Source: an uncultured Bacilli bacterium
Lineage (GTDB): Bacteria; Bacillota_I; Bacilli_A; RF39; UBA660
Reading direction: 5' to 3'
Assembly: GCA_934087065.1 (NCBI GenBank)
Contig: CAKOIS010000005.1
Location: 2,789 to 66,788 of the forward strand
Length of the DNA: 64,000 nucleotides
A program made the position numbers and the translations under genes. The notes under the pieces were generated by a model. The model did no database searches. It was not told where the DNA came from and saw only the letters and a program-made list of their open reading frames with translations. The first letter of the stretch is position 1. Each line of letters opens with the position of its first letter. Of the stretch, positions 3,294 through 48,754 are shown piece by piece.

Positions 3294-5627
3294 ATGGATG
3301 CTTTAAAAAATAATAGTATACTTATAGTAGATGATACAGTAAAAGAAAGTGTTATTAGTGAGTTTAGAAAGAGTAATGAGTTAGTAGATGTTAAGTTTAT
3401 AAGTTTTAGTGAATTTAAGAGGTTATATTATTTTGATTATGATAAAAAAACAATATTTTATTTAATTAAGAAATATCACTATAAGTATGAAGTGTGTCTA
3501 GTTTATTTAAAGAATTTATATTATATAGAAGATAAAGAATATAAAAGTGAAAAATTAAAGTTTTTAAGAGATTTAAAAAGTGAGTTAGATGAGCATGGTT
3601 TACTTACATATGACGAGTATTTTAAAAATAGTTTAAATAAAAAGAATATTTATGTTTATAGTAAGAAAAAGATAAGCAAGTTTTATAAGAGTGTATTTGA
3701 TAAGTTAAGTGTAACTTATTTAGATAATGAAGTAGTTAATAATAAAGAGTTTAATATATATGAATGCAAGAGCGTGGAAAGTGAAGTAAACTTTGTATGT
3801 AATAAAATAGTAGATTTAATTAAAAGTGGAATTGATATAAACAATATTAAACTATTAAATGTAAAAGAAGAATATATGTATTTAATTAGAAAACTATTTG
3901 GTTTTTATAATATTCCAATAGAAAAAAAGAAGACAACAAGTCTTTATAGCACAAGAATTGGAAAGTACTTTTTGAGTGCATTAGATGGTAGTAAAGAAAG
4001 CATAGTAGAAAATTTAACAAATGAGTTTAAAAATAACACGGAAGAAGTAAACATAATTATCAATATAATTAATGATTATACTTGGGTAAATGATTTAACA
4101 AGTGTCAAAGAAATGCTTATACATGACTTAAAAAACACTTATATAAAAGAAGAACAACTAAAAAACAAAGTAAGTTTTATTAGTTTAGGAGAAGTAGTAA
4201 ATAGTAAAGATTATGTGTTTTTAATGAGCTTTAACGAAGGAGATATACCACAAACTTTTAAAGATGAAGAATATATAAGTGATAACATCAAAAGTGAAGT
4301 GAATATTGAGACTACTTTAGAAAAAAATATTAATAGCAAGAATGATGCATTGAACTTCTTAAATAGCATAGATAACTTAATTATATCTTACAAGTTAGAA
4401 GAAGGTAGTATCAGTTATAATATCTCATCACTTAGTGAAGAAATGAATTATAATGTACTCAAGTTTGAAGACGTGTATAATAAGTCAAATATATATAATA
4501 AAATAAGATTAAGTAACTTACTTGATTTATATTCAAAGTATGGAGTAGTTACTAAAGAGACAAGTAAACTACTAAGTAATTATCCGGATATTAATTACCT
4601 AAGTTATGATAACAAATTTAAAGGAATAGACAAAAACAAACTAGATAAGAATATACTTTTATCTTATTCAACGCTTGATAACTACTATAGATGTAGTTTC
4701 AGGTACTATATTGATAGTGTGTTAAAACTTGGTATATTTGAAGAAACATTTATGACATTTATTGGAAGTTTATATCACTACATACTTTCAATTATGGATA
4801 AAGAAAATTTTGACTTAGATAAAGAATACGATAATTTTATAAAAGAAAGTAATAAAGTCTTTAGTAAAAAAGAAGAGTTCTTTTTAGAAAAATTAAAAAG
4901 CGAGTTAGCTTTCGTTGTAAAAACAATAAAAGAACAATATAAGTACTCTAGTTTAGATGATAAACTCTATGAAGAGAAGATATACATTAATAAGAATGAC
5001 AATAAAACTTTCATGGGAATAGTTGATAAAATCATGTATAAAACTATAAACGATAAAACAGTAGTCTCTATAGTAGATTATAAAACTGGAAACCCAATGA
5101 TAAGTTTAGATAATGTTGCTTACGGAATAGGAATGCAACTACCCATATACTTGTATCTAGTAAGTAAAAGTAACAAATTTAAGAATGTAATAATAGGTGG
5201 CTTTTACTTACAAAAAGTACTTAATACAGTGGTAAATAAAGATAACTCTAGTAGTTATGAAACACTAAAGAAAAATAATTTGAAATTACAAGGATACTCA
5301 ACAAGTAATGAAGAAGTACTTGATTTAGTTGATAAGAGTTATAATGACAGTTTAGTTATCAAAGGACTAAGAACTTCAAGTAAAGGTTTTTATAGTTATA
5401 GTAAAGTGATAAATGAAAGCGAGATTAACAAACTCGTTAGTGAAGTTGATGATAGAATTGAAGATGCGTTTGCTGGTGTTAGTGAAGGCAAGTTTGATAT
5501 TAACCCAAAGAGAATTGGTAAAATCAACAAGGGTTGTGAGTTTTGTAAATACTATGATATTTGTTATAGAAAAGAAAATGATATAGTTAATTTAAAAGAA
5601 GTTAAGTTTGGAGGTGAAGAAGAGTGA
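3294..5627 (+). CDS. addB: helicase-nuclease complex subunit AddB/RexB-like, short form (777 aa)
   Basis: C-terminal RecB-type nuclease motif 'IVDYKTG' plus Cys cluster 'CSFRYY...CEFCKYYDIC' typical of the AddB Fe-S nuclease domain. Translationally coupled to the downstream AddA gene. Confidence 0.65.
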   Translation: MDALKNNSILIVDDTVKESVISEFRKSNELVDVKFISFSEFKRLYYFDYDKKTIFYLIKKYHYKYEVCLVYLKNLYYIEDKEYKSEKLKFLRDLKSELDEHGLLTYDEYFKNSLNKKNIYVYSKKKISKFYKSVFDKLSVTYLDNEVVNNKEFNIYECKSVESEVNFVCNKIVDLIKSGIDINNIKLLNVKEEYMYLIRKLFGFYNIPIEKKKTTSLYSTRIGKYFLSALDGSKESIVENLTNEFKNNTEEVNIIINIINDYTWVNDLTSVKEMLIHDLKNTYIKEEQLKNKVSFISLGEVVNSKDYVFLMSFNEGDIPQTFKDEEYISDNIKSEVNIETTLEKNINSKNDALNFLNSIDNLIISYKLEEGSISYNISSLSEEMNYNVLKFEDVYNKSNIYNKIRLSNLLDLYSKYGVVTKETSKLLSNYPDINYLSYDNKFKGIDKNKLDKNILLSYSTLDNYYRCSFRYYIDSVLKLGIFEETFMTFIGSLYHYILSIMDKENFDLDKEYDNFIKESNKVFSKKEEFFLEKLKSELAFVVKTIKEQYKYSSLDDKLYEEKIYINKNDNKTFMGIVDKIMYKTINDKTVVSIVDYKTGNPMISLDNVAYGIGMQLPIYLYLVSKSNKFKNVIIGGFYLQKVLNTVVNKDNSSSYETLKKNNLKLQGYSTSNEEVLDLVDKSYNDSLVIKGLRTSSKGFYSYSKVINESEINKLVSEVDDRIEDAFAGVSEGKFDINPKRIGKINKGCEFCKYYDICYRKENDIVNLKEVKFGGEEE

Positions 5628-15828: not shown

Positions 15829-16386
15829 ATGTTTAATGTAAATGATATTAAAAATGGAATGACTATTAGTTATGAAGGTAATATATATCAAGTAGTTGAG
15901 TTTCAACATGTAAAACCAGGTAAAGGTAGTGCATTTGTCAAAACTAAATTAAAGAATTTAAGAACACAAACTACACAAGAAATTACTTTCAACGCTGGTA
16001 TTAAACTTGAAAAAGCAAATGTTGTAAAAAACGATTTAAGTTATTTATATAGTCAAGGAGACTCTTATGTATTTATGGATAATAATACTTATGATCAAAT
16101 TGAAATAAATAAGAGCAAGCTAGGCGATAATGCTAAATTCTTAAAAGAAGGATTAGTAGTTAATGTAATGAATTACAATGGAGAAATTGTTGGAGTAACT
16201 TTCCCAGATAAAATTAGCTATAAAGTTGTTGAAACTGAACAAGCAGTTAAAGGAAACACTACAAGTGGAGCTCAAAAAGATGCTACATTAGAAACAGGAT
16301 ATACTGTTAAAGTTCCTTTATTCATTGAAGCTGGAGAAGAAATAATTATTACTACTAGTGATGGTAAATATTCAAGTAGAGCATAA
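15829..16386 (+). CDS. efp: elongation factor P
   Basis: 185 aa. Conserved 'KPGKGSAFV' loop containing the modified Lys. Confidence 0.9.
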   Translation: MFNVNDIKNGMTISYEGNIYQVVEFQHVKPGKGSAFVKTKLKNLRTQTTQEITFNAGIKLEKANVVKNDLSYLYSQGDSYVFMDNNTYDQIEINKSKLGDNAKFLKEGLVVNVMNYNGEIVGVTFPDKISYKVVETEQAVKGNTTSGAQKDATLETGYTVKVPLFIEAGEEIIITTSDGKYSSRA

Positions 16387-16440: not shown

Positions 16441-16610
16441 TAAAGATAGGAGATAAACATATGAAAGATACATTTTTAGTACAAAGTAAACTACAAAATG
16501 GGGGGGGTTATTTAAGTAAAGTAAATAACTTAAGTTTTCATATGTCTAAATATAATGGATAGAATAAGTCTACCCATTTTTTGTTGTGTAAGAAAGAAGG
16601 AGTATGATTT
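16441..16610 (+). promoter_or_regulatory. conserved leader, copy 1: SD + leader ORF (16461-16562, 33 aa) containing G8 tract (16500-16507) + terminator hairpin (16555-16583) + SD of main gene
   Basis: Leader ORF MKDTFLVQSKLQNGGGYLSKVNNLSFHMSKYNG*. Its TAG stop lies in the 5' arm (atggatag) of the hairpin atggatag/ctacccat, which is followed by TTTTTT. Homologous leaders at 36215-36393 and 47098-47272. Confidence 0.55.
16500..16507 (+). repeat. poly-G homopolymer (G8) inside leader ORF
   Basis: Read directly from the sequence. G-runs of 8 or more are otherwise absent from this 30% GC window. Confidence 0.9.
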
Positions 16611-18257
16611 ATGAATAAGAAGAGTATAACAATATTAGTAGTGTGTTTAATAGTGACTGTGTTGTCAGTCAGTTTAGCATACTATAGTGCTAGAATAATA
16701 GGTGATGGGAAAAACGTAAGCGTGAATGCAAAAGAGCTTACAATAAACTTTGACAATAATAACGAAATAGCGAGTGGTATAATTGAACCAGGTTGGAGTA
16801 GTTCTAATACTTTTAGTGTTACTAATAAAAGTAAAACTAACTTTACATATGATATTGTATTAAAGAACTATAAAAATACTACTAAGACTAATGGATACCT
16901 AGTTTATAAAATAACTAGTACAAATGGTTACAATATGACTGAATATAAAGATATGCCAAAAGATGGAGATAATACATATGACCTAGTAATTGCTAGAGGC
17001 ATAACTATTGAACCAGGAAGTAGTAATAAACAAAGTTATACTTTAGAAATAAAATACCTAGATAGCACTGAAGACCAAAGTATAGATATGGGGTCAACTG
17101 TTACAGGTAGTTTATATATAGTAGAAAGTACAACAAACGAAAATAACCCATATACTAAAGGAACATTAGGTTATCAAATAATGGAAGATAACTCAAATAT
17201 TAAAACTAGAACAGATTTTAGTAAAACCTACACAGATGTAAATATTGGAACAATGTATAAAGCACAAGAAGAAAATACTGACGTTTATTATTTTGCAGGA
17301 GATGCAAGAAACAACTGGGTTAAATTTGGAACATGGAAGGAAGATAAAACCATAATAGTTGGATATTACGACACATCAGCTTTTCAGGGCAAACTTTATG
17401 ATACGTTAGAAGAATGTAATACGGCTAGTTCATATAATAAAAATTGTCACTCAGTTACATTGGCTAAAAAAGGAAATGCAATGTACTGGAGAATAATTCG
17501 TACAAATAATGATGGAAGCATAAGACTATTATACGCAGGGACTAATCCGTATGGTAATGAAGCATATGTAAATATAAGTGTATATAATTCTCCATATAAT
17601 AACCCTATGTATGTAGGCTATATGTATGGAACATTAGGCTCTTTGGAAAATAATAGACAAAACACAACAGATAGTTCGGTTAAATCAGCAATTGATAATT
17701 GGTATGTAAATAACATGACATCATATACAAAATATTTAAGCACAAGTGCAGTATATTGTAATGACCGTAGCATACCAAATTCAGACTATAACACTGATAA
17801 AACAGGTTTTAATTATAATTCAGTGTATAGGTTAAATACTAACAAAACTCCAACATATAATTGCGAAAGCGAATATGACGCTTTTAGTGTAGAAAATGCA
17901 AATGCTAAACTAACTTACCCAATAGCCTTAATGACAGCAGACGAAATTGCATATGCAGGTGGTTTACACAACACTCGTTCTGAAACGTGGGTATATAAAA
18001 GTGCTGTACTTAATTCTGACAATGAAAATATTATAAGTGCAACAGGAATTACAAGGTGGTGGACAATGAGCCCTGGAATTTGGGAAGGAACAATATCTAG
18101 AACATATTTTTTAAACACTGTAGCTTGGCCAGGACATTTAAGTACGCAATATATTAATTATGGATATGGTGTAAGACCAGTAATAAGTATAAATAGAAAT
18201 AACATATGGAAAAGTGGAGATGGAAGCGTAGAACATCCATATGAAATTAGTAATTGA
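16611..18257 (+). CDS. secreted paralog family member 1 (548 aa); SipW-cognate-like signal peptide, TasA/camelysin-like N-terminal region
   Basis: N-terminus 'MNKKSITILVVCLIVTVLSVSLAYYSARIIGDGKNVSV...IEPGWSSSNTFSV'. Conserved C-terminal block shared with copy 3 ('WRIIRTN.DGS.RLLY.GT', 'YPIALMTADE', 'VRP'). Confidence 0.6.
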   Translation: MNKKSITILVVCLIVTVLSVSLAYYSARIIGDGKNVSVNAKELTINFDNNNEIASGIIEPGWSSSNTFSVTNKSKTNFTYDIVLKNYKNTTKTNGYLVYKITSTNGYNMTEYKDMPKDGDNTYDLVIARGITIEPGSSNKQSYTLEIKYLDSTEDQSIDMGSTVTGSLYIVESTTNENNPYTKGTLGYQIMEDNSNIKTRTDFSKTYTDVNIGTMYKAQEENTDVYYFAGDARNNWVKFGTWKEDKTIIVGYYDTSAFQGKLYDTLEECNTASSYNKNCHSVTLAKKGNAMYWRIIRTNNDGSIRLLYAGTNPYGNEAYVNISVYNSPYNNPMYVGYMYGTLGSLENNRQNTTDSSVKSAIDNWYVNNMTSYTKYLSTSAVYCNDRSIPNSDYNTDKTGFNYNSVYRLNTNKTPTYNCESEYDAFSVENANAKLTYPIALMTADEIAYAGGLHNTRSETWVYKSAVLNSDNENIISATGITRWWTMSPGIWEGTISRTYFLNTVAWPGHLSTQYINYGYGVRPVISINRNNIWKSGDGSVEHPYEISN

Positions 18258-35100: not shown

Positions 35101-35903
35101 TTCCAAAAGCTAAAGCTACTATTGCTGAAATAAGCGGTAAAGTAACTAAAATACAAGAAGATAAAGGTAAATTCAAAATTTATATTACAAACGACGTAGA
35201 AGTAAGAGAACATATAACTCTATATAATGCTAAGTTAAGAGTTGAAAAAGGTTCTATAGTAGAAGCAGGTCAGGCATTAACTGAAGGAAGTATAAGTCCA
35301 AAAGAATTACTTGCAGTAACTGATCCAACTACTGTTGAAGAATATATCTTAAGAGAAGTTCAAAAGGTATATAAATCACAAGGTGTTGATGTAAGTGACA
35401 AGCATATAGAAACTGTTGTAAGAAGAATGATTTCAAAAATGAGAATAGTTGATGCAGGAGACACTGACTTTGTAGAAGGTACTACTGTTTCAATTAGAGA
35501 ATTTGGAGAAAGAAACAAACCTTACATCCTTGAAGGTAAAGTTCCTGCAACTGGTAAAGCTGTAATGCTTGGTATTACTAAAGCAAGCTTAGAAACTGAT
35601 TCATTCTTAAGTGCAGCTTCATTCCAAGAAACTACAAGAATTCTAACAGACGCTGCTGTAAGAGGTAAGATAGATCATTTAAACGGACTAAAAGAAAACG
35701 TTATCCTAGGTAAACTAATACCTGCAGGTACTGGTGCTAGACAATATAAGGACATTGAAATAGAACTTCAAAAAGAATTCCTAAGCGATGACCCAACAGA
35801 AGTACTAGAAGAAACTTTTATGTCTGAAACAAATGACGACTTACTAATAGATGACGGAGTAATGAATATAGATAACGAAGAAGAAACAGAAGAAGAAAAA
35901 TAA
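32193..35903 (+). CDS. rpoC: RNA polymerase beta' subunit
   Basis: 1236 aa. Zinc-binding 'CACGKYK...CDRCG' and 'NADFDGD' catalytic motif. Confidence 0.95.
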
Positions 35904-35941
35904 CTTCTTCTTTTCTTTTTGAAACAAATTAAACATATATA

Positions 35942-35969
35942 TTGACAACTTCTTTATTTCTGCTATAAT
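35942..35969 (+). promoter_or_regulatory. promoter TTGACA-16-TGcTATAAT
   Basis: Consensus hexamers with extended -10. Confidence 0.55.
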
Positions 35970-35992
35970 TAAATCATAAAGGAGTGTTATGT

Positions 35993-36160
35993 ATGAAGAA
36001 AAACGAAATATGTCTAGACAAAGTAATATTAAAAGAAATACAACAAATAGAAAAAGATATGAAAGAAGCAGCAGAAGAAGTAAGAAAGATAGAAAACCAC
36101 GAAGGCAACTATAAAGTTTATGACGATGTTAAAAGCTTTATGGAAGATTTGTCTAAGTAA
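35993..36160 (+). CDS. hypothetical 55-aa protein
   Basis: AAAGGAG SD 8 nt upstream. MKKNEICLDKVILKEIQQIEKDMKEAAEEVRKIENHEGNYKVYDDVKSFMEDLSK. Below ORF-track cutoff. Confidence 0.4.
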   Translation: MKKNEICLDKVILKEIQQIEKDMKEAAEEVRKIENHEGNYKVYDDVKSFMEDLSK

Positions 36161-36182
36161 GTAAAATCTTTAAGTTTACTAC

Positions 36183-36212
36183 TTGACAAGGCTCACTAAA
36201 AAATGCTAAAAT
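36183..36212 (+). promoter_or_regulatory. promoter TTGACA-18-TGcTAAAAT for leader / paralog copy 2
   Basis: Sequence match to consensus. Confidence 0.5.
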
Positions 36213-36214
36213 TT

Positions 36215-36393
36215 AAGAGTAAAAAGATAGGAGAAGATATATATGGAATCTAACTCTTTAGTACAAAATGAAGTACAAATGGGGGGGGGTATTTAGTTTA
36301 GTAAATACCACTAGTTTTCATATACTTTTAATGAGATAGAATATTTTTCTATCTCTTTTTCGTGTCTTTAAAAAGAAGGGAGAGCATAAAATT
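36215..36393 (+). promoter_or_regulatory. conserved leader, copy 2: leader ORF 36243-36296 (MESNSLVQNEVQMGGGI*) with G9 tract 36281-36289; terminator 36333-36360
   Basis: Perfect 9-bp stem gagatagaa/ttctatctc then TTTTT. With G9 the leader ORF stops 37 nt upstream of the hairpin. Confidence 0.55.
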
Positions 36394-37689
36394 ATGCATA
36401 ACAAACAATTAACATTAGTTGTAGTAAGCCTTTTAGTAGTAGTACTAAGTGTATCACTAGCATGGTTTACAACACAAATATTGGGAAAGGGGAAAGACGT
36501 AAGTGTAAGTAGTGCTAACTTACAAATAATATTTACAGATAGTGACGGTGCTTTATCAGCAAATGATATAGAACCAGGATGGAGTGCAACAAAAACATTC
36601 ACTGTACAAAACAATAGTAAAGAAGAATACAAATACAATATTATTATAAAAGATTTGGTAAACACATTTGTAACAAACGGATACTTACAATACAAGATAA
36701 CTAGTACAAACGATGGATATAATATGACAGAGTATAAGGATATACCAAAATCTAGTACAGCTAAAGATATAATACTTGCTTATAGTGTATCTATACCAAA
36801 GGGAGAAACTCAAACATACACAATAGAATTTAAGTATGCAAATGACGAAAGCAAAGACCAAAGTGTAGATATGAATAAGAAACTGAGTGGAACTTTATTT
36901 ATAACAGAAGGAATAGAAGAACCAAAATCACTTGCAACATTAATACAAACAAATGCTATAAATGAAAATGGATATAGATATGAAGGAACAGACCCAAATA
37001 ACTATATACAAATGGAGAAGACTGATGGCACAACAGAAATATGGAGAATAATAGGGTTATTCCCAGATGGAGAAAATGGAGAAGATGTAATAAGAGTAAG
37101 AAAAGTAGAATATGAGAGTGCTCCTTATGACTCAAATGATACAAACCATTGGCCAAATACAACGCTATATACATATTTAAAAGATACATATTCATTAACA
37201 AATTATAAAAACACAGTAAACTATAAAATGTACTTAGGTGGTGCAAGTAGTATATCAAGTTATACATCACAAGACTTATATGATATGGAAAGAATGTTAA
37301 ATAGTAAAGGAACAGCAGGAAAAACATCACAAAATAGTTATTCTAGCACAACAACATTTACAGGAAGTGTAGGACTAATGTATCCAAGCGATTATGGGTG
37401 CGCTGTACTAGCAAGTGACTGTGCAAGAACAATCACGCCTGAAAAATATACTGAACCAGCAGCATGCCACGATAACAACTGGTTATTCCAAGGTTCAAAT
37501 ATTCGACAATGGTTAATAAGCCCAGGCGTCTCTTTTAATAATTATGCGTTCATTGTCCATGCTAATGGGTATGCCACTCACATGTACATCGTAACTGTTT
37601 CCGTCTCTTATAGCCCAGTTATGGCTCTAAAGTCCGATGTAATCGTAACAGGAAGTGGTACACAAAGTGACCCATATGTAATGAATTAA
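36394..37689 (+). CDS. secreted paralog family member 2 (431 aa)
   Basis: N-terminus 'MHNKQLTLVVVSLLVVVLSVSLAWFTTQILGKGKDVSV...IEPGWSATKTFTV', about 65% identical to copy 3 over the first ~175 aa. Divergent C-terminal half. Confidence 0.6.
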   Translation: MHNKQLTLVVVSLLVVVLSVSLAWFTTQILGKGKDVSVSSANLQIIFTDSDGALSANDIEPGWSATKTFTVQNNSKEEYKYNIIIKDLVNTFVTNGYLQYKITSTNDGYNMTEYKDIPKSSTAKDIILAYSVSIPKGETQTYTIEFKYANDESKDQSVDMNKKLSGTLFITEGIEEPKSLATLIQTNAINENGYRYEGTDPNNYIQMEKTDGTTEIWRIIGLFPDGENGEDVIRVRKVEYESAPYDSNDTNHWPNTTLYTYLKDTYSLTNYKNTVNYKMYLGGASSISSYTSQDLYDMERMLNSKGTAGKTSQNSYSSTTTFTGSVGLMYPSDYGCAVLASDCARTITPEKYTEPAACHDNNWLFQGSNIRQWLISPGVSFNNYAFIVHANGYATHMYIVTVSVSYSPVMALKSDVIVTGSGTQSDPYVMN

Positions 37690-37788
37690 GGACTAAATAA
37701 AGTACAAGATAAGGAATTCAAGAAATTGGGTTCTTTTTTCTTTATTGTTTTGTGTTTTTATGGTATAATTTTAGGGAAGAAATGAGTG

Positions 37789-39081
37789 ATGTTTATGTTT
37801 ATAGATGAAGTAGTTATAACTGTTATAGGTGGACACGGAGGAGATGGGTGTACTAGTTTTAGACACGAGAAATTTGTTGAAATGGGTGGACCAGATGGTG
37901 GCAATGGTGGAAAAGGTGGAGATGTTGTTTTTGTTGCCGAAGAAGGCCTTAAAACTCTTATTGATTTAAGATATCAAAAGAAAATCAAAGGAGAAAAAGG
38001 AAATAACGGAAGTGGAGCATTAAGGACTGGTGCAAGTGGAAGTGATACTTTTATTAAAGTTCCTGTAGGTACAACTATTACCGATATTGAAACTAATCTA
38101 ATTATAGGAGACTTGACTAAACAAGGAGAAAAATGTGTAGTAGCTAAAGGTGGAAAAGGTGGAAGAGGTAACGCATCATTTAAAAGCAATAAAGATAAAG
38201 CGCCTAAGATAAGTGAGCACGGAATGGCTGGAGAAGAAAGAAAGTTAAAGCTTGAGTTAAAACTTTTAGCTGATGTTGGACTAGTGGGCTTTCCAAGTGT
38301 AGGGAAAAGTAGCTTAATCAGTGTTATAAGTGCATCTAAACCAAAAATTGCAGACTACCATTTCACAACATTAACACCAAACTTGGGTGTAGTATCAACT
38401 AAGAGTACTAGCTATGTAGTAGCTGACCTTCCAGGTATCATAGAAGGAGCATCAAATGGCGTTGGTTTAGGAGATAAATTCTTAAAACACGCAAGTCGCT
38501 GTAAAATTGTTGCCTATGTAATAGACGCTTCATGTATAGAAGGAAGAGACTTAGTAAGTGAATATCAAATTTTATTAAATGAAGTAAAAAACTATAGTGA
38601 AAAACTATATAATAAGAAAAGTATAGTAATAGCTAATAAAATGGATATCTTTGGTAGTAAGGAAAATTTAGAAAACTTTAAAAAAGCATTCCCTGATGTA
38701 GAAGTACTAGAAACAAGTGCAGTTACGCACCTTGGAATAGAAGAACTAAAAAGTCGTCTAGGAGAACTTGTTTTATCTACTAATGAAGAAAATATGTATA
38801 GCGATGAAGAGTTTGAAAGCTATGTATTATATGAATTTAAAAACAAAAGACCATATAACATTACAAGAATAGATGATCACACTTGGGTATTATCTGGAGA
38901 AAAACTAGAAAATTTACTTAAGAAAACAAGATTTAATAGTGATGAAGCACTACTTAAATTTGCAAGAAAACTAAAGAACATGGGCGTTGATGACGAGTTA
39001 AAAACTATGGGTGCCAAAAGCGGGGACACAGTTAGAATATTAGATGTAGAGTTTGAGTTTAGTGAGAAACTTGACTATTAA
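37789..39081 (+). CDS. obg: GTPase Obg
   Basis: Gly-rich N-terminal Obg fold 'GGHGGDG...GGNGGKGGDV', G1 'GFPSVGKSSL', C-terminal OCT domain. AGGGAAG SD then ATG 37789. Confidence 0.9.
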   Translation: MFMFIDEVVITVIGGHGGDGCTSFRHEKFVEMGGPDGGNGGKGGDVVFVAEEGLKTLIDLRYQKKIKGEKGNNGSGALRTGASGSDTFIKVPVGTTITDIETNLIIGDLTKQGEKCVVAKGGKGGRGNASFKSNKDKAPKISEHGMAGEERKLKLELKLLADVGLVGFPSVGKSSLISVISASKPKIADYHFTTLTPNLGVVSTKSTSYVVADLPGIIEGASNGVGLGDKFLKHASRCKIVAYVIDASCIEGRDLVSEYQILLNEVKNYSEKLYNKKSIVIANKMDIFGSKENLENFKKAFPDVEVLETSAVTHLGIEELKSRLGELVLSTNEENMYSDEEFESYVLYEFKNKRPYNITRIDDHTWVLSGEKLENLLKKTRFNSDEALLKFARKLKNMGVDDELKTMGAKSGDTVRILDVEFEFSEKLDY

Positions 39082-47097: not shown

Positions 47098-47272
47098 TAA
47101 TAAAGATAGGAAGTGAAGTACATGAAAATTAACTCTTTGGTACAAAATAAAGTACAAAATGGGGGGGGGTTATTTAAATAGTATAAATAACTATAGTTTT
47201 TCATGTGCAATTAAATGGATAGAATAACTCTACCCATTTTTTCGTGTCTTAAAAAGAAAGGAGAACATTAAT
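47098..47272 (+). promoter_or_regulatory. conserved leader, copy 3: leader ORF 47122-47181 (MKINSLVQNKVQNGGGLFK*) with G9 tract 47161-47169; terminator 47215-47243
   Basis: Hairpin atggatag/ctacccat + T6 identical to copy 1. In the G8 frame the ORF would read ...GGGYLNSINNYSFSCAIKWIE*, similar to the copy-1 leader peptide, and would end inside the hairpin. Confidence 0.55.
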
Positions 47273-48754
47273 ATGCAAAAGAAAAAATTAACACTTGTAA
47301 TAGTAAGCTTACTTGTAGTAGTACTAAGTGTATCACTAGCTTACTTTACAGCACAAATAATAGGAAAGGGTAAAAATGTAAGTGTAACAAGTGCTAACTT
47401 ACAAATAGTATTTACAGATAGTGATGGAGCTTTAACAGAAACTGGTATAGAACCAGGGTGGCAAAAAACTAAAACTTTTACTATTAAAAATGATACTAAG
47501 ACAGAATACAAGTATAATATAGTAATAAAAGACTTGTTAAATACTTTTGTAACTAATGGATACTTACAATATAAGATAACTAGTACAAATAATGGATATA
47601 ATATGACTGAGTTTAAAGATATTCCAAAGTCAAGTGCACCTAAAGATAAAATACTAGCTTATAGTGTTAGTATTCCAGTAGGAGTAACACAAAGTTATAC
47701 TATTGAATTTAAGTATGCAAACGATGAAAGTGTAGACCAAAGTGATGATATGGGTAAGAAACTAAGTGGAACACTATTTATAACTGAAGGAACAGAAGAT
47801 CCAAACAAAACACTTTTAACTCAATTATTTGCAGACAAATCAACAGTATTAACAAGAACAGACTTTAGTACAGTATTAACAACAGATAATACAAAAACAT
47901 TATATACGGGAACAGAGAATGGAACAACAGTATACTATTTTGCAGGGAATGCAACAGATAACTGGGTAAAGTTTGGAAAGAATGCAAGTAATGAAGACTT
48001 ATACTGGAGAATAATAAGAACAAACTCAGATGGTAGTGTAAGACTTTTATACCATGGAACAAGTACAACAGCAACAGACGCATATATAGGGACATCAGCA
48101 TTTAATAGTAGTAATAATGATATAGCATATGTAAGCTATATGTATGGAAATTTAGGAAGTGTTGCAAATGCTAGAGAAAATACAACTAACAGTACAATAA
48201 AAACAATAATAGATAACTGGTATAAAGATAATTTGAATACAAATTATGGTAAATACCTAAGTACAACAGCAGTATACTGTAACGATAGAAGTACATCAGA
48301 TAATGCATCCTTTGGAGCACGTACAAGACTACAAACAAATAAAACACCAACATATGACTGTTCAGTAGCAGAAGACAAATTCACAGTAGACACAAGTACA
48401 GGAAATGGGAAACTAACATACCCAATAGCATTAATGACAGCAGACGAAGTAAGTTTTGCAGGTGGAGTATGGATAGTAAATGCACCTACATGGTATTATA
48501 AAAATAGTGCAAACGAAAGCTCTACAGACTCAACCTGGTGGTGGTTGTTGTCTCCTCGCGGTTGGTATGACAGCGTCGCTTACGTGTTCTACGTGTCCGG
48601 TTCGTCCAAACCTGGCTACTTGTACGACAACAGCGTCAACTACACCACCCGTGTGCGTCCAGCCCTATCACTAAAATCTTGTGTTAAATATGCAAATGGA
48701 GATGGCTCAGCAAGCGCACCATACACAATAAAAGAAACTTCAAGTGGGTGCTAA
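47273..48754 (+). CDS. secreted paralog family member 3 (493 aa)
   Basis: N-terminus 'MQKKKLTLVIVSLLVVVLSVSLAYFTAQIIGKGKNVSV'. Central/C-terminal block homologous to copy 1. GC3-rich patch at ~48553-48666. Confidence 0.6.
   Translation: MQKKKLTLVIVSLLVVVLSVSLAYFTAQIIGKGKNVSVTSANLQIVFTDSDGALTETGIEPGWQKTKTFTIKNDTKTEYKYNIVIKDLLNTFVTNGYLQYKITSTNNGYNMTEFKDIPKSSAPKDKILAYSVSIPVGVTQSYTIEFKYANDESVDQSDDMGKKLSGTLFITEGTEDPNKTLLTQLFADKSTVLTRTDFSTVLTTDNTKTLYTGTENGTTVYYFAGNATDNWVKFGKNASNEDLYWRIIRTNSDGSVRLLYHGTSTTATDAYIGTSAFNSSNNDIAYVSYMYGNLGSVANARENTTNSTIKTIIDNWYKDNLNTNYGKYLSTTAVYCNDRSTSDNASFGARTRLQTNKTPTYDCSVAEDKFTVDTSTGNGKLTYPIALMTADEVSFAGGVWIVNAPTWYYKNSANESSTDSTWWWLLSPRGWYDSVAYVFYVSGSSKPGYLYDNSVNYTTRVRPALSLKSCVKYANGDGSASAPYTIKETSSGC

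Follow-up and report, generated by a model that had tools for sequence, protein, structure and literature searches.

A poly-G tract in a leader-peptide reading frame as a putative phase-variable attenuator in uncultured human-gut Bacilli

We analyzed a 64,000-nucleotide (nt) chromosomal stretch of an uncultured human-gut Bacilli lineage (hereafter the window; G+C content of ~28%). In the window, the gene of a 431-amino-acid (aa) protein is preceded by a leader with a run of nine G's, located in a short open reading frame (ORF) upstream of a predicted intrinsic terminator. This leader is termed copy 2, since two homologous leaders, copies 1 and 3, were found in the same stretch. We consider it probable, judging from the sequence, that the copy-2 element acts by slipped-strand phase variation of a leader peptide which controls the terminator. 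The observed basis for this is the anatomy of the leader, its conservation, and the polymorphism of the tract. The first-pass annotation of the window had read the element as an attenuator switch; its reading is supported by tract lengths of 8–11 G's among relatives, by a frame geometry shared by 62 of 63 leaders, and by the precedent of Streptococcus gallolyticus pili (PMC3894217), while the ON and OFF states are predictions.

Organization of the copy-2 leader

The following elements make up the copy-2 leader and the gene behind it:

36183–36212, forward strand: sigma-70-type promoter of the leader transcript (TTGACA at 36183–36188, an 18-nt spacer, and TGcTAAAAT with TAAAAT at 36207–36212).
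36223–36233, forward strand: Shine–Dalgarno (SD) box of the leader ORF, AAAGATAGGAG (aaagatagga at 36223–36232; AGGAG 9 nt before ATG).
36243–36296, forward strand: leader ORF in its present short frame, 18 codons, from ATG at 36243 to TAG at 36294–36296, with the predicted translation MESNSLVQNEVQMGGGI before the stop.
36281–36289, forward strand: homopolymeric G9 tract, the putative hypermutable element, 6–11 G's long in related leaders.
36333–36360, forward strand: predicted intrinsic terminator (attenuator) with a perfect 9-bp stem, a 5-nt loop, and T5.
36375–36382, forward strand: SD site of the structural gene, seen in the sequence.
36394–37689, forward strand: structural gene of 431 aa, with a hydrophobic helix at the N-terminus and domains of the beta-sandwich type, from a large paralogous family.

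The promoter matched the consensus at 11 of 12 positions and had an extended −10 TG; related leaders carried an equivalent one (TTGAAA or TTGACA, a spacer of 17–18 nt, and TAAGAT). The AAAGATAGGAG box was kept in nearly all leaders. In the leaders of Clostridium sp. CAG:628, its place was taken by a canonical GAAGGAGGA 8 nt from ATG, and this swap argues that the box functions as an SD sequence. The leader start codon was conserved among relatives, being GTG in one of them (L018), and both SD and start codon were kept in at least 60 relatives. The terminator consisted of GAGATAGAA-TATTT-TTCTATCTC at 36333–36355 followed by T5 at 36356–36360, with a predicted free energy of −11.4 kcal/mol; it was the sole terminator-like site within 35900–37900. 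A search of the region 36150–36420 against Rfam 15 at permissive E-values revealed no riboswitch or cis-regulatory RNA family (best E = 0.38, far under the gathering score).

Other types of phase variation were rejected on positions and frames. The tract begins 69 nt downstream of the −10 hexamer, which does not fit repeat variation in a promoter spacer. Its end is 105 nt upstream of the structural ATG (36394), and no frame from the tract reaches the structural ORF, which does not fit classical intragenic phase variation or fusion of the leader ORF to the structural one.

In the G9 state, the TAG of the leader ORF and the stem are separated by 36 nt, a distance of 37 nt when counted from the final base of the stop codon to the base that opens the stem. 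Removal of one G (G8) shifts the stop to TAG 36337–36339 in the 5' arm of the hairpin, and addition of one G (G10) places it 35 nt before the hairpin. Counted from the hairpin start, the stops were at −40 for G9, −35 for G10, and +3 for G8. The order of parts proposed in the first-pass annotation (promoter, SD box, leader ORF, poly-G, terminator, SD, ATG), its positions for the tract and the stop, its distance of 37 nt, and its claim that loss of one G would extend the ORF into the 5' arm were all correct. In folds of the terminator region that were constrained by a ribosome footprint of 30 nt on the stop codon, 9 of 9 stem pairs formed for G9 and G10 and none for G8; copy 1 gave a corresponding result.

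The switch would work as follows. A constitutive promoter would produce a ~140-nt leader with a short translated ORF bearing the G9 tract, and replication slippage would alter the tract by ±1 G, as the polymorphism between samples suggests. Two of the three frames would make the ribosome stop 32–49 nt before the terminator; the hairpin would then form and transcription would end ahead of the structural gene (OFF). The third frame would carry the ribosome to a stop inside the hairpin, where the ribosome footprint would block the stem and let RNA polymerase read through (ON). Copy 2 with its G9 is in a short frame and is thus predicted to be OFF, and G8 would switch it ON; for copies 1 (G8) and 3 (G9), the predicted states are ON and OFF, respectively. 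Within this model, we infer transcription and translation of the leader, activity of the terminator, proximity of ribosome and polymerase, and the direction of the switch.

Occurrence of the G tracts

The two other leaders of the window are located as follows:

16442–16582, forward strand: leader copy 1, with G8 at 16500–16507 and a leader ORF at 16461–16562 in the long frame (TAG in the hairpin 5' arm), before the ORF 16611–18257.
47102–47242, forward strand: leader copy 3, with G9 at 47161–47169 and a leader ORF at 47122–47181 in the short frame, before the ORF 47273–48754.

The terminators of copies 1 and 3 were at 16555–16582 and 47215–47243, respectively. Each of the three leaders precedes a paralogous gene, and the encoded proteins are 33–50% identical.

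Runs of at least eight G's were present at three sites of the window (G8 at 16500, G9 at 36281, and G9 at 47161) versus 0.03 expected. According to the alignment, the three tracts occupy the same position in three homologous leaders of ~140 nt, and nhmmer detected exactly these three. No other G6 or G7 run and no C run of six or longer was found anywhere in the 64-kb window. A run of 8–11 G's held at one position in a genome of such composition, with no other G or C runs of at least six, calls for selection. In the 867 kb of fetched DNA and the window taken together, all 74 runs of G8 or longer fell at this leader position. The poly-G leader pattern is not due to chance.

Metagenomes were also scanned with a DNA pattern that did not include the tract. 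It returned 60 loci, nearly all from human gut, of which 59 were leaders; their tracts had 6–11 G's and a few were interrupted. The relatives are uncultured human-gut Bacillota/Bacilli, namely Clostridium sp. CAG:628, UBA11492, and Hadza metagenome-assembled genomes.

Frame geometry and conservation of the terminator

Sixty-three tract-bearing leaders from human-gut metagenomes were translated from the leader ATG at tract lengths n−1, n, and n+1. Exactly one length class ended in the hairpin in 62 of 63 leaders, either at +3 (TAG, 5' arm) or at +8 (TAA or TGA, loop), and the two remaining classes ended 32–49 nt upstream of it. At their present lengths, 26 leaders were in the long and 36 in the short state, which is near the 1:2 ratio expected of a free-running switch.

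This geometry was unchanged in the CAG:628 leaders, which have a different and longer N-terminus as well as the canonical SD, and it was kept in the L050 and L028 types, where the segment after the tract is different. A 1-nt polymorphism (T4/T5) upstream of the hairpin turns the C-terminal peptide SFHVQLNG into SFSCAIKWIE, and the stop is still in the hairpin. Thus, it is the position of the stop that is conserved and not the sequence of the peptide.

The common terminator, ATGGATAGA/TCTACCCAT, which is present in the orthologues of copy 2, contains an A-C mismatch. The copy-2 stem is derived from it via compensatory changes and is perfect (−11.4 versus about −6.3 kcal/mol). The first-pass annotation had stated that the terminator sequence of copy 2 differs while its position and the stop within the stem are conserved, and had seen in this a pattern that fits selection on function rather than on primary sequence. 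Both statements agree with the data: the stem is derived and the geometry extends to diverged leader types, and the compensatory changes not only keep the copy-2 stem but even improve it. In other relatives, the stem mismatch was repaired (L056 and L093, TCTATCC) or the stem was further weakened (L047 and L055, AGATAGA). Since stem strength differs among copies and relatives, leakiness may differ between copies as well.

Leaders lacking an intact tract were found in five cases, and four of them are fixed in the long frame (L109, L039, L074, and L077); L069 has no long frame. An in-frame deletion in L109 and L039 has removed the tract, the GTACAAA motif (see below), and half of the hairpin, and the ORF, of 20 codons in L109 (1060–1200) and 17 codons in L039 (about 3800–3900), still runs to the terminator hairpin. 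The long frame was also present in L074 (GGGAGGGGG) and L077 (ACAGGGG). Retention of the long frame in tract-less leaders is expected if this frame corresponds to the expressed state and was kept when the switch was lost. A deletion of the L109/L039 type at the orthologous rpoC-obg locus is a candidate for an allele locked in the ON state.

A distant paralogue from a Hadza metagenome-assembled genome (L032, about 3790–4000) has a tract-less small ORF after GGATAGGAG, with the product MSAMRRIINNIMYLMIR before the stop; the start region of this ORF pairs with TTTCTCATAG, behind which there is a T run. Possibly, this is a related leader that lacks the switch.

Variation of the tract length

Leaders with 300 nt of coding sequence were clustered at ≥97% identity with the tract masked; grouping by exactly identical flanks was too strict to be informative and was replaced by this procedure. 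The tract length differed within five of the eight multi-member clusters, and the largest cluster comprised G8 in four, G9 in five, and G10 in five members. For a sister lineage, the orthologous rpoC-obg locus (P0030, identical protein) was represented by nine contigs from different samples, with 8, 8, 10, 9, 9, 8, 10, 10, and 11 G's in near-identical leaders. Among the other alleles, P0003 has G10 and P0005 has lost the whole tract. The comparison of orthologous loci proposed in the first-pass annotation therefore bore out variation of 8–11 G's among near-identical orthologous and paralogous loci, while the exact copy-2 allele itself was uniform (see below).

Contig ends or N gaps were located exactly at the poly-G in L024 (3637), L040 (3609–3823), L046, L059, L066, L075, L078, L081, L084, and L098, and many paralogue genes begin at contig ends. 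Such breaks fit heterogeneity of the tract, the repeated nature of the leader, or the "G's end" artefact of Illumina sequencing (PMC9187656). In L105 (1–190) and L106 (1–162), which carry the P0013 allele, unrelated sequence with its own hairpin (aaaagcccataaaatgggc) is joined exactly at the tract position; this junction may reflect a chimeric assembly, or else insertion or recombination at that point.

Weight of the evidence

Several points weigh against the proposed switch. The organism is known from uncultured gut metagenome-assembled genomes alone, and the model is built on sequence. The mechanism requires RNA polymerase to be followed closely by a ribosome; in Bacillota, this cannot be taken for granted, as the uncoupling in Bacillus subtilis indicates. 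The common terminator is weak (−6.2 to −6.6 kcal/mol). When the segment from the tract to the hairpin was shuffled for each leader type, the full geometry arose in 8–18% of trials, so that a single leader is not significant and the weight rests on conservation across diverged types; the leader types are, furthermore, related to one another. The exact copy-2 allele had G9 in three of three contigs (the window, L001, and L110), so that switching at this locus and in this lineage was not seen directly, and the P0013 allele (76% identical) also had G9 in three contigs. Finally, a break at the tract is seen in many contigs, Illumina assemblies can give a homopolymer the wrong length, and the Illumina artefact at G tracts is documented (PMC9187656).

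One alternative is that there is no switch at all: the element would be a conserved, repeated leader or promoter cassette of the paralogous family, and the length differences would be sequencing or assembly errors. The frequent contig ends and N gaps at the tract, the documented artefacts, and the invariable G9 of the identical copy-2 allele are in its favor. We regard this explanation as highly improbable, because lengths from 8 to 11 G's were seen across assemblers and studies in contigs otherwise ≥97% identical, and because errors leave unexplained the selection for a run of 8–11 G's at one position of an AT-rich genome, the frame geometry, and the in-frame tract-less variants.

Further conserved elements of the leader

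In addition to the parts listed above, the following elements were recognized:

36288–36309, forward strand: hairpin E, GGUAUUUA/UAAAUACC, from predicted folds; it begins in the last G's of the tract and holds both early stops.
16506–16528 (copy 1) and 47168–47191 (copy 3), forward strand: equivalents of hairpin E, from predicted folds.
36315–36324, forward strand: segment UUUUCAUAUA, complementary to the start-codon region 36239–36248; a candidate long-range stem, from folds.
36261–36279, forward strand (also 16480–16498 and 47141–47159): GTACAAA-N5-GTACAAA motif just before the tract, conserved including CAG:628.

At the position of hairpin E, other leader types had GUUAUUUA/UAAAUAAC or UUAAGA/UCUUAA. 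This variation by leader type hints at selection on structure, although the support from covariation is weak statistically. The start-codon region pairs over 10–11 bp with a UUUUCAUAUG-like sequence just upstream of the terminator, and equivalents of this stem were present in copies 1 and 3. One of its positions showed a CG-to-UA compensatory change (17 versus 6 sequences); in the CAG:628 leaders, the stem is broken. RNAalifold, run on 26 diverse leaders, gave a plausible consensus with a covariation term of ~0 and one clearly covarying position, and for this reason the extra stems are not claimed as established. Across the copies, the direct repeat reads GTACAAA-N5-(G/C)TACAAA and encodes VQNKVQ. 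These elements possibly serve as a pause or synchronization hairpin, in insulation of the terminator, or in promotion of slippage. The first-pass annotation was right in every part of the leader that it named, and it had overlooked the hairpin after the tract and the start-codon stem.

Alternatively, the G tract could be a variable part of the 5' untranslated region which acts at the RNA level without translation, its length altering the folding of the leader, RNA stability, or the binding of a small RNA (sRNA) or protein. There is a precedent in the tlpB leader of Helicobacter pylori, where a G-repeat is targeted by the sRNA RepG. The leaders folded better than their shuffled versions (z = −4.4, −2.0, and −4.0), a hairpin directly abuts the tract, the long-range stem covers the leader start codon, and the GTACAAA-N5-GTACAAA motif is strongly conserved. 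In the common leader type, moreover, the border of the tract has AAAAUGGG, the complement of CCCAUUUU in the 3' arm of the terminator, but copy 2 lacks this complementarity, and the covariation term mentioned above was close to zero. An effect of the tract length on folding also leaves unexplained the period-3 logic by which one frame reaches the hairpin (62 of 63 leaders), the retention of SD and start codon (with a canonical SD as substitute in CAG:628), and the in-frame ORF that runs to the hairpin in tract-less leaders. We consider action at the RNA level alone unlikely.

Somewhat less likely still is a programmed recoding site, in which the G run and the adjacent hairpin would cause ribosomal frameshifting or transcriptional slippage and, at a constant DNA length, yield a mixture of short and long leader peptides, with graded and not heritable expression. 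A conserved hairpin immediately after a homopolymer would suit such a site, and so would the rarity of GGG codons expected from the base composition of a ~28% G+C genome. However, stimulators of −1 frameshifting typically have a spacer of 5–9 nt, while hairpin E starts inside the tract, and transcriptional slippage is poorer on G runs than on A or T runs. The length of the DNA itself varies between samples, which is sufficient for switching.

Comparison with known switches

The closest counterpart of the slippage-controlled attenuator proposed here is that of the S. gallolyticus pil1 and pil3 pilus loci, whose expression depends on GCAGA repeats within the ORF of a leader peptide (Danne et al. 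2014, PLoS Pathog, PMC3894217). A short peptide ending 39 bp before the terminator gives low expression there. Expression is high with out-of-frame repeat numbers, whose peptides terminate inside the hairpin or downstream of it; the model was confirmed by start-codon mutations, inserted stops, and deletion of the terminator (PMC3894217). Both systems share a promoter, an SD sequence with a repeat-bearing leader ORF, an intrinsic terminator, and surface-protein genes. The short stop lies ~39 bp before the hairpin in S. gallolyticus and 36–49 nt before it here, the long stop lies within or after the hairpin, and several loci per genome carry the same device.

The differences are also clear. The repeat is present in 13–23 GCAGA copies in S. 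gallolyticus and is a homopolymer of 8–11 G's here; both out-of-frame states are long there, whereas one of three frames is long here. The element of our lineage is a dispersed cassette, with 3 copies per 64 kb and many per metagenome-assembled genome, found before a paralogous family and XRE-like regulators. It contains extra conserved RNA elements (hairpin E and the start-codon stem), and its host is an uncultured gut Bacilli lineage (CAG:628/UBA11492-like) known from sequence alone. No sequence similarity of the leader to the S. gallolyticus pil1 leader was found, and GCAGA repeats are absent from it. With a G homopolymer and no GCAGA repeats, the element is analogous to the pil1 leader and is not its homologue. 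A search of the literature available to us for a homopolymer version of a leader-peptide attenuator found none.

The nearest gut example of a G tract that we found is the sortase-pilus switch of another human-gut commensal, Bifidobacterium breve, where a tract of ~10–12 G's varies in length within populations and gates surface structures (PMC9187656). That tract belongs to the first structural gene, where two ORFs are fused through it, in contrast to the separate leader ORF of 18 to 35 codons and the predicted action on a terminator in our case.

In the cwpV-type switch of Clostridioides difficile, an invertible element forms a leader terminator in one orientation. The flgB and fim switches of this species are Rho-dependent (PMC12360218). 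Like these C. difficile systems, the poly-G leader would give heritable stochastic ON/OFF states by ending transcription prematurely within the 5' leader of a gene for a surface protein. Unlike them, it would rely on slippage, while the C. difficile switches involve site-specific inversion by a recombinase and no leader peptide.

In the pyrBI and trp attenuation of Escherichia coli, a ribosome that translates the leader ORF into or near the attenuator hairpin prevents termination. The poly-G leader resembles these systems in that the ribosome translating the leader would block termination, and its upstream hairpin could likewise synchronize polymerase and ribosome. The E. coli systems respond to the supply of uridine triphosphate or to charged tRNA, whereas the frame here would be set genetically by the tract length. 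The attenuation of the trp leader is also discussed in connection with the pil1 system (PMC3894217).

Regulated genes and genomic context

More than 4,400 metagenomic homologues of the 431-aa protein encoded behind copy 2 were found. Searches of the three paralogues against Pfam and NCBIfam assigned no family, save a marginal match to DUF6273 in the protein of copy 3. Comparison of an AlphaFold model of the 431-aa protein (predicted local distance difference test score, pLDDT, of 80) with the PDB gave only weak matches of jelly-roll or carbohydrate-binding-module type, so that no function was assigned. We read the regulated proteins as putative secreted or surface proteins.

According to the gene table of the identical locus L001, copy 2 is located between rpoC with a small ORF and obg. 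At 35942–36160, between rpoC and the leader, a 58-aa ORF is driven by a promoter that fits the consensus perfectly (TTGACA-16-TATAAT, with TG upstream); sister lineages have a RelB/YafQ toxin–antitoxin pair at this position. Copy 1 is directly downstream of efp, the gene of elongation factor P (15829–16386). A link between this adjacency and the Gly-Gly-Gly of the leader was considered and set aside: no evidence supported it, and the adjacency is probably a coincidence. In the whole window, the only Rfam match at the gathering score was the L10 leader RF00557 (26815–26924, 48.8 bits), located upstream of rplJ/rplL and before rpoB.

The same poly-G leader precedes genes of small XRE-like helix-turn-helix proteins in L050, L052, L092, and L093 (for example, MTNEELKKLVGRNVRKYRL...LTQKDLASKIG...), so that regulators, too, may be phase-variable under this switch. 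Viral contigs were scanned with the terminator sequence, with 0 matches. More tentatively, and with less confidence than in the switch itself, we suggest that promoter, SD, leader ORF, G tract, tract-adjacent hairpin, and attenuator could form a modular dispersed cassette of ~170 nt and high nucleotide identity. Within a clade of uncultured human-gut Bacilli, it would have been copied before numerous paralogous genes of secreted proteins and before those of small XRE-type regulators. Each cell would then display a random combination of surface proteins, possibly with phase-variable regulons, and the tract-adjacent hairpin and the start-codon stem would be dedicated parts of the switch with no counterpart in S. 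gallolyticus.

Significance

Repeat-driven leader-peptide attenuation has one characterized example, the pili of S. gallolyticus, and has been shown experimentally only there. Since the tracts break assemblies, tract lengths in databases should not be trusted at face value, and surveys of phase variation in metagenomes should cover intergenic poly-G tracts followed by terminators. If the present reading is true, the principle arose independently with a homopolymer, was packaged as a portable cassette, and is reused many times per genome. It would operate in abundant uncultured human-gut Bacilli, where it would generate surface diversity at the level of strains and cells; this diversity would be invisible to ordinary gene annotation because the tract is outside any annotated gene.

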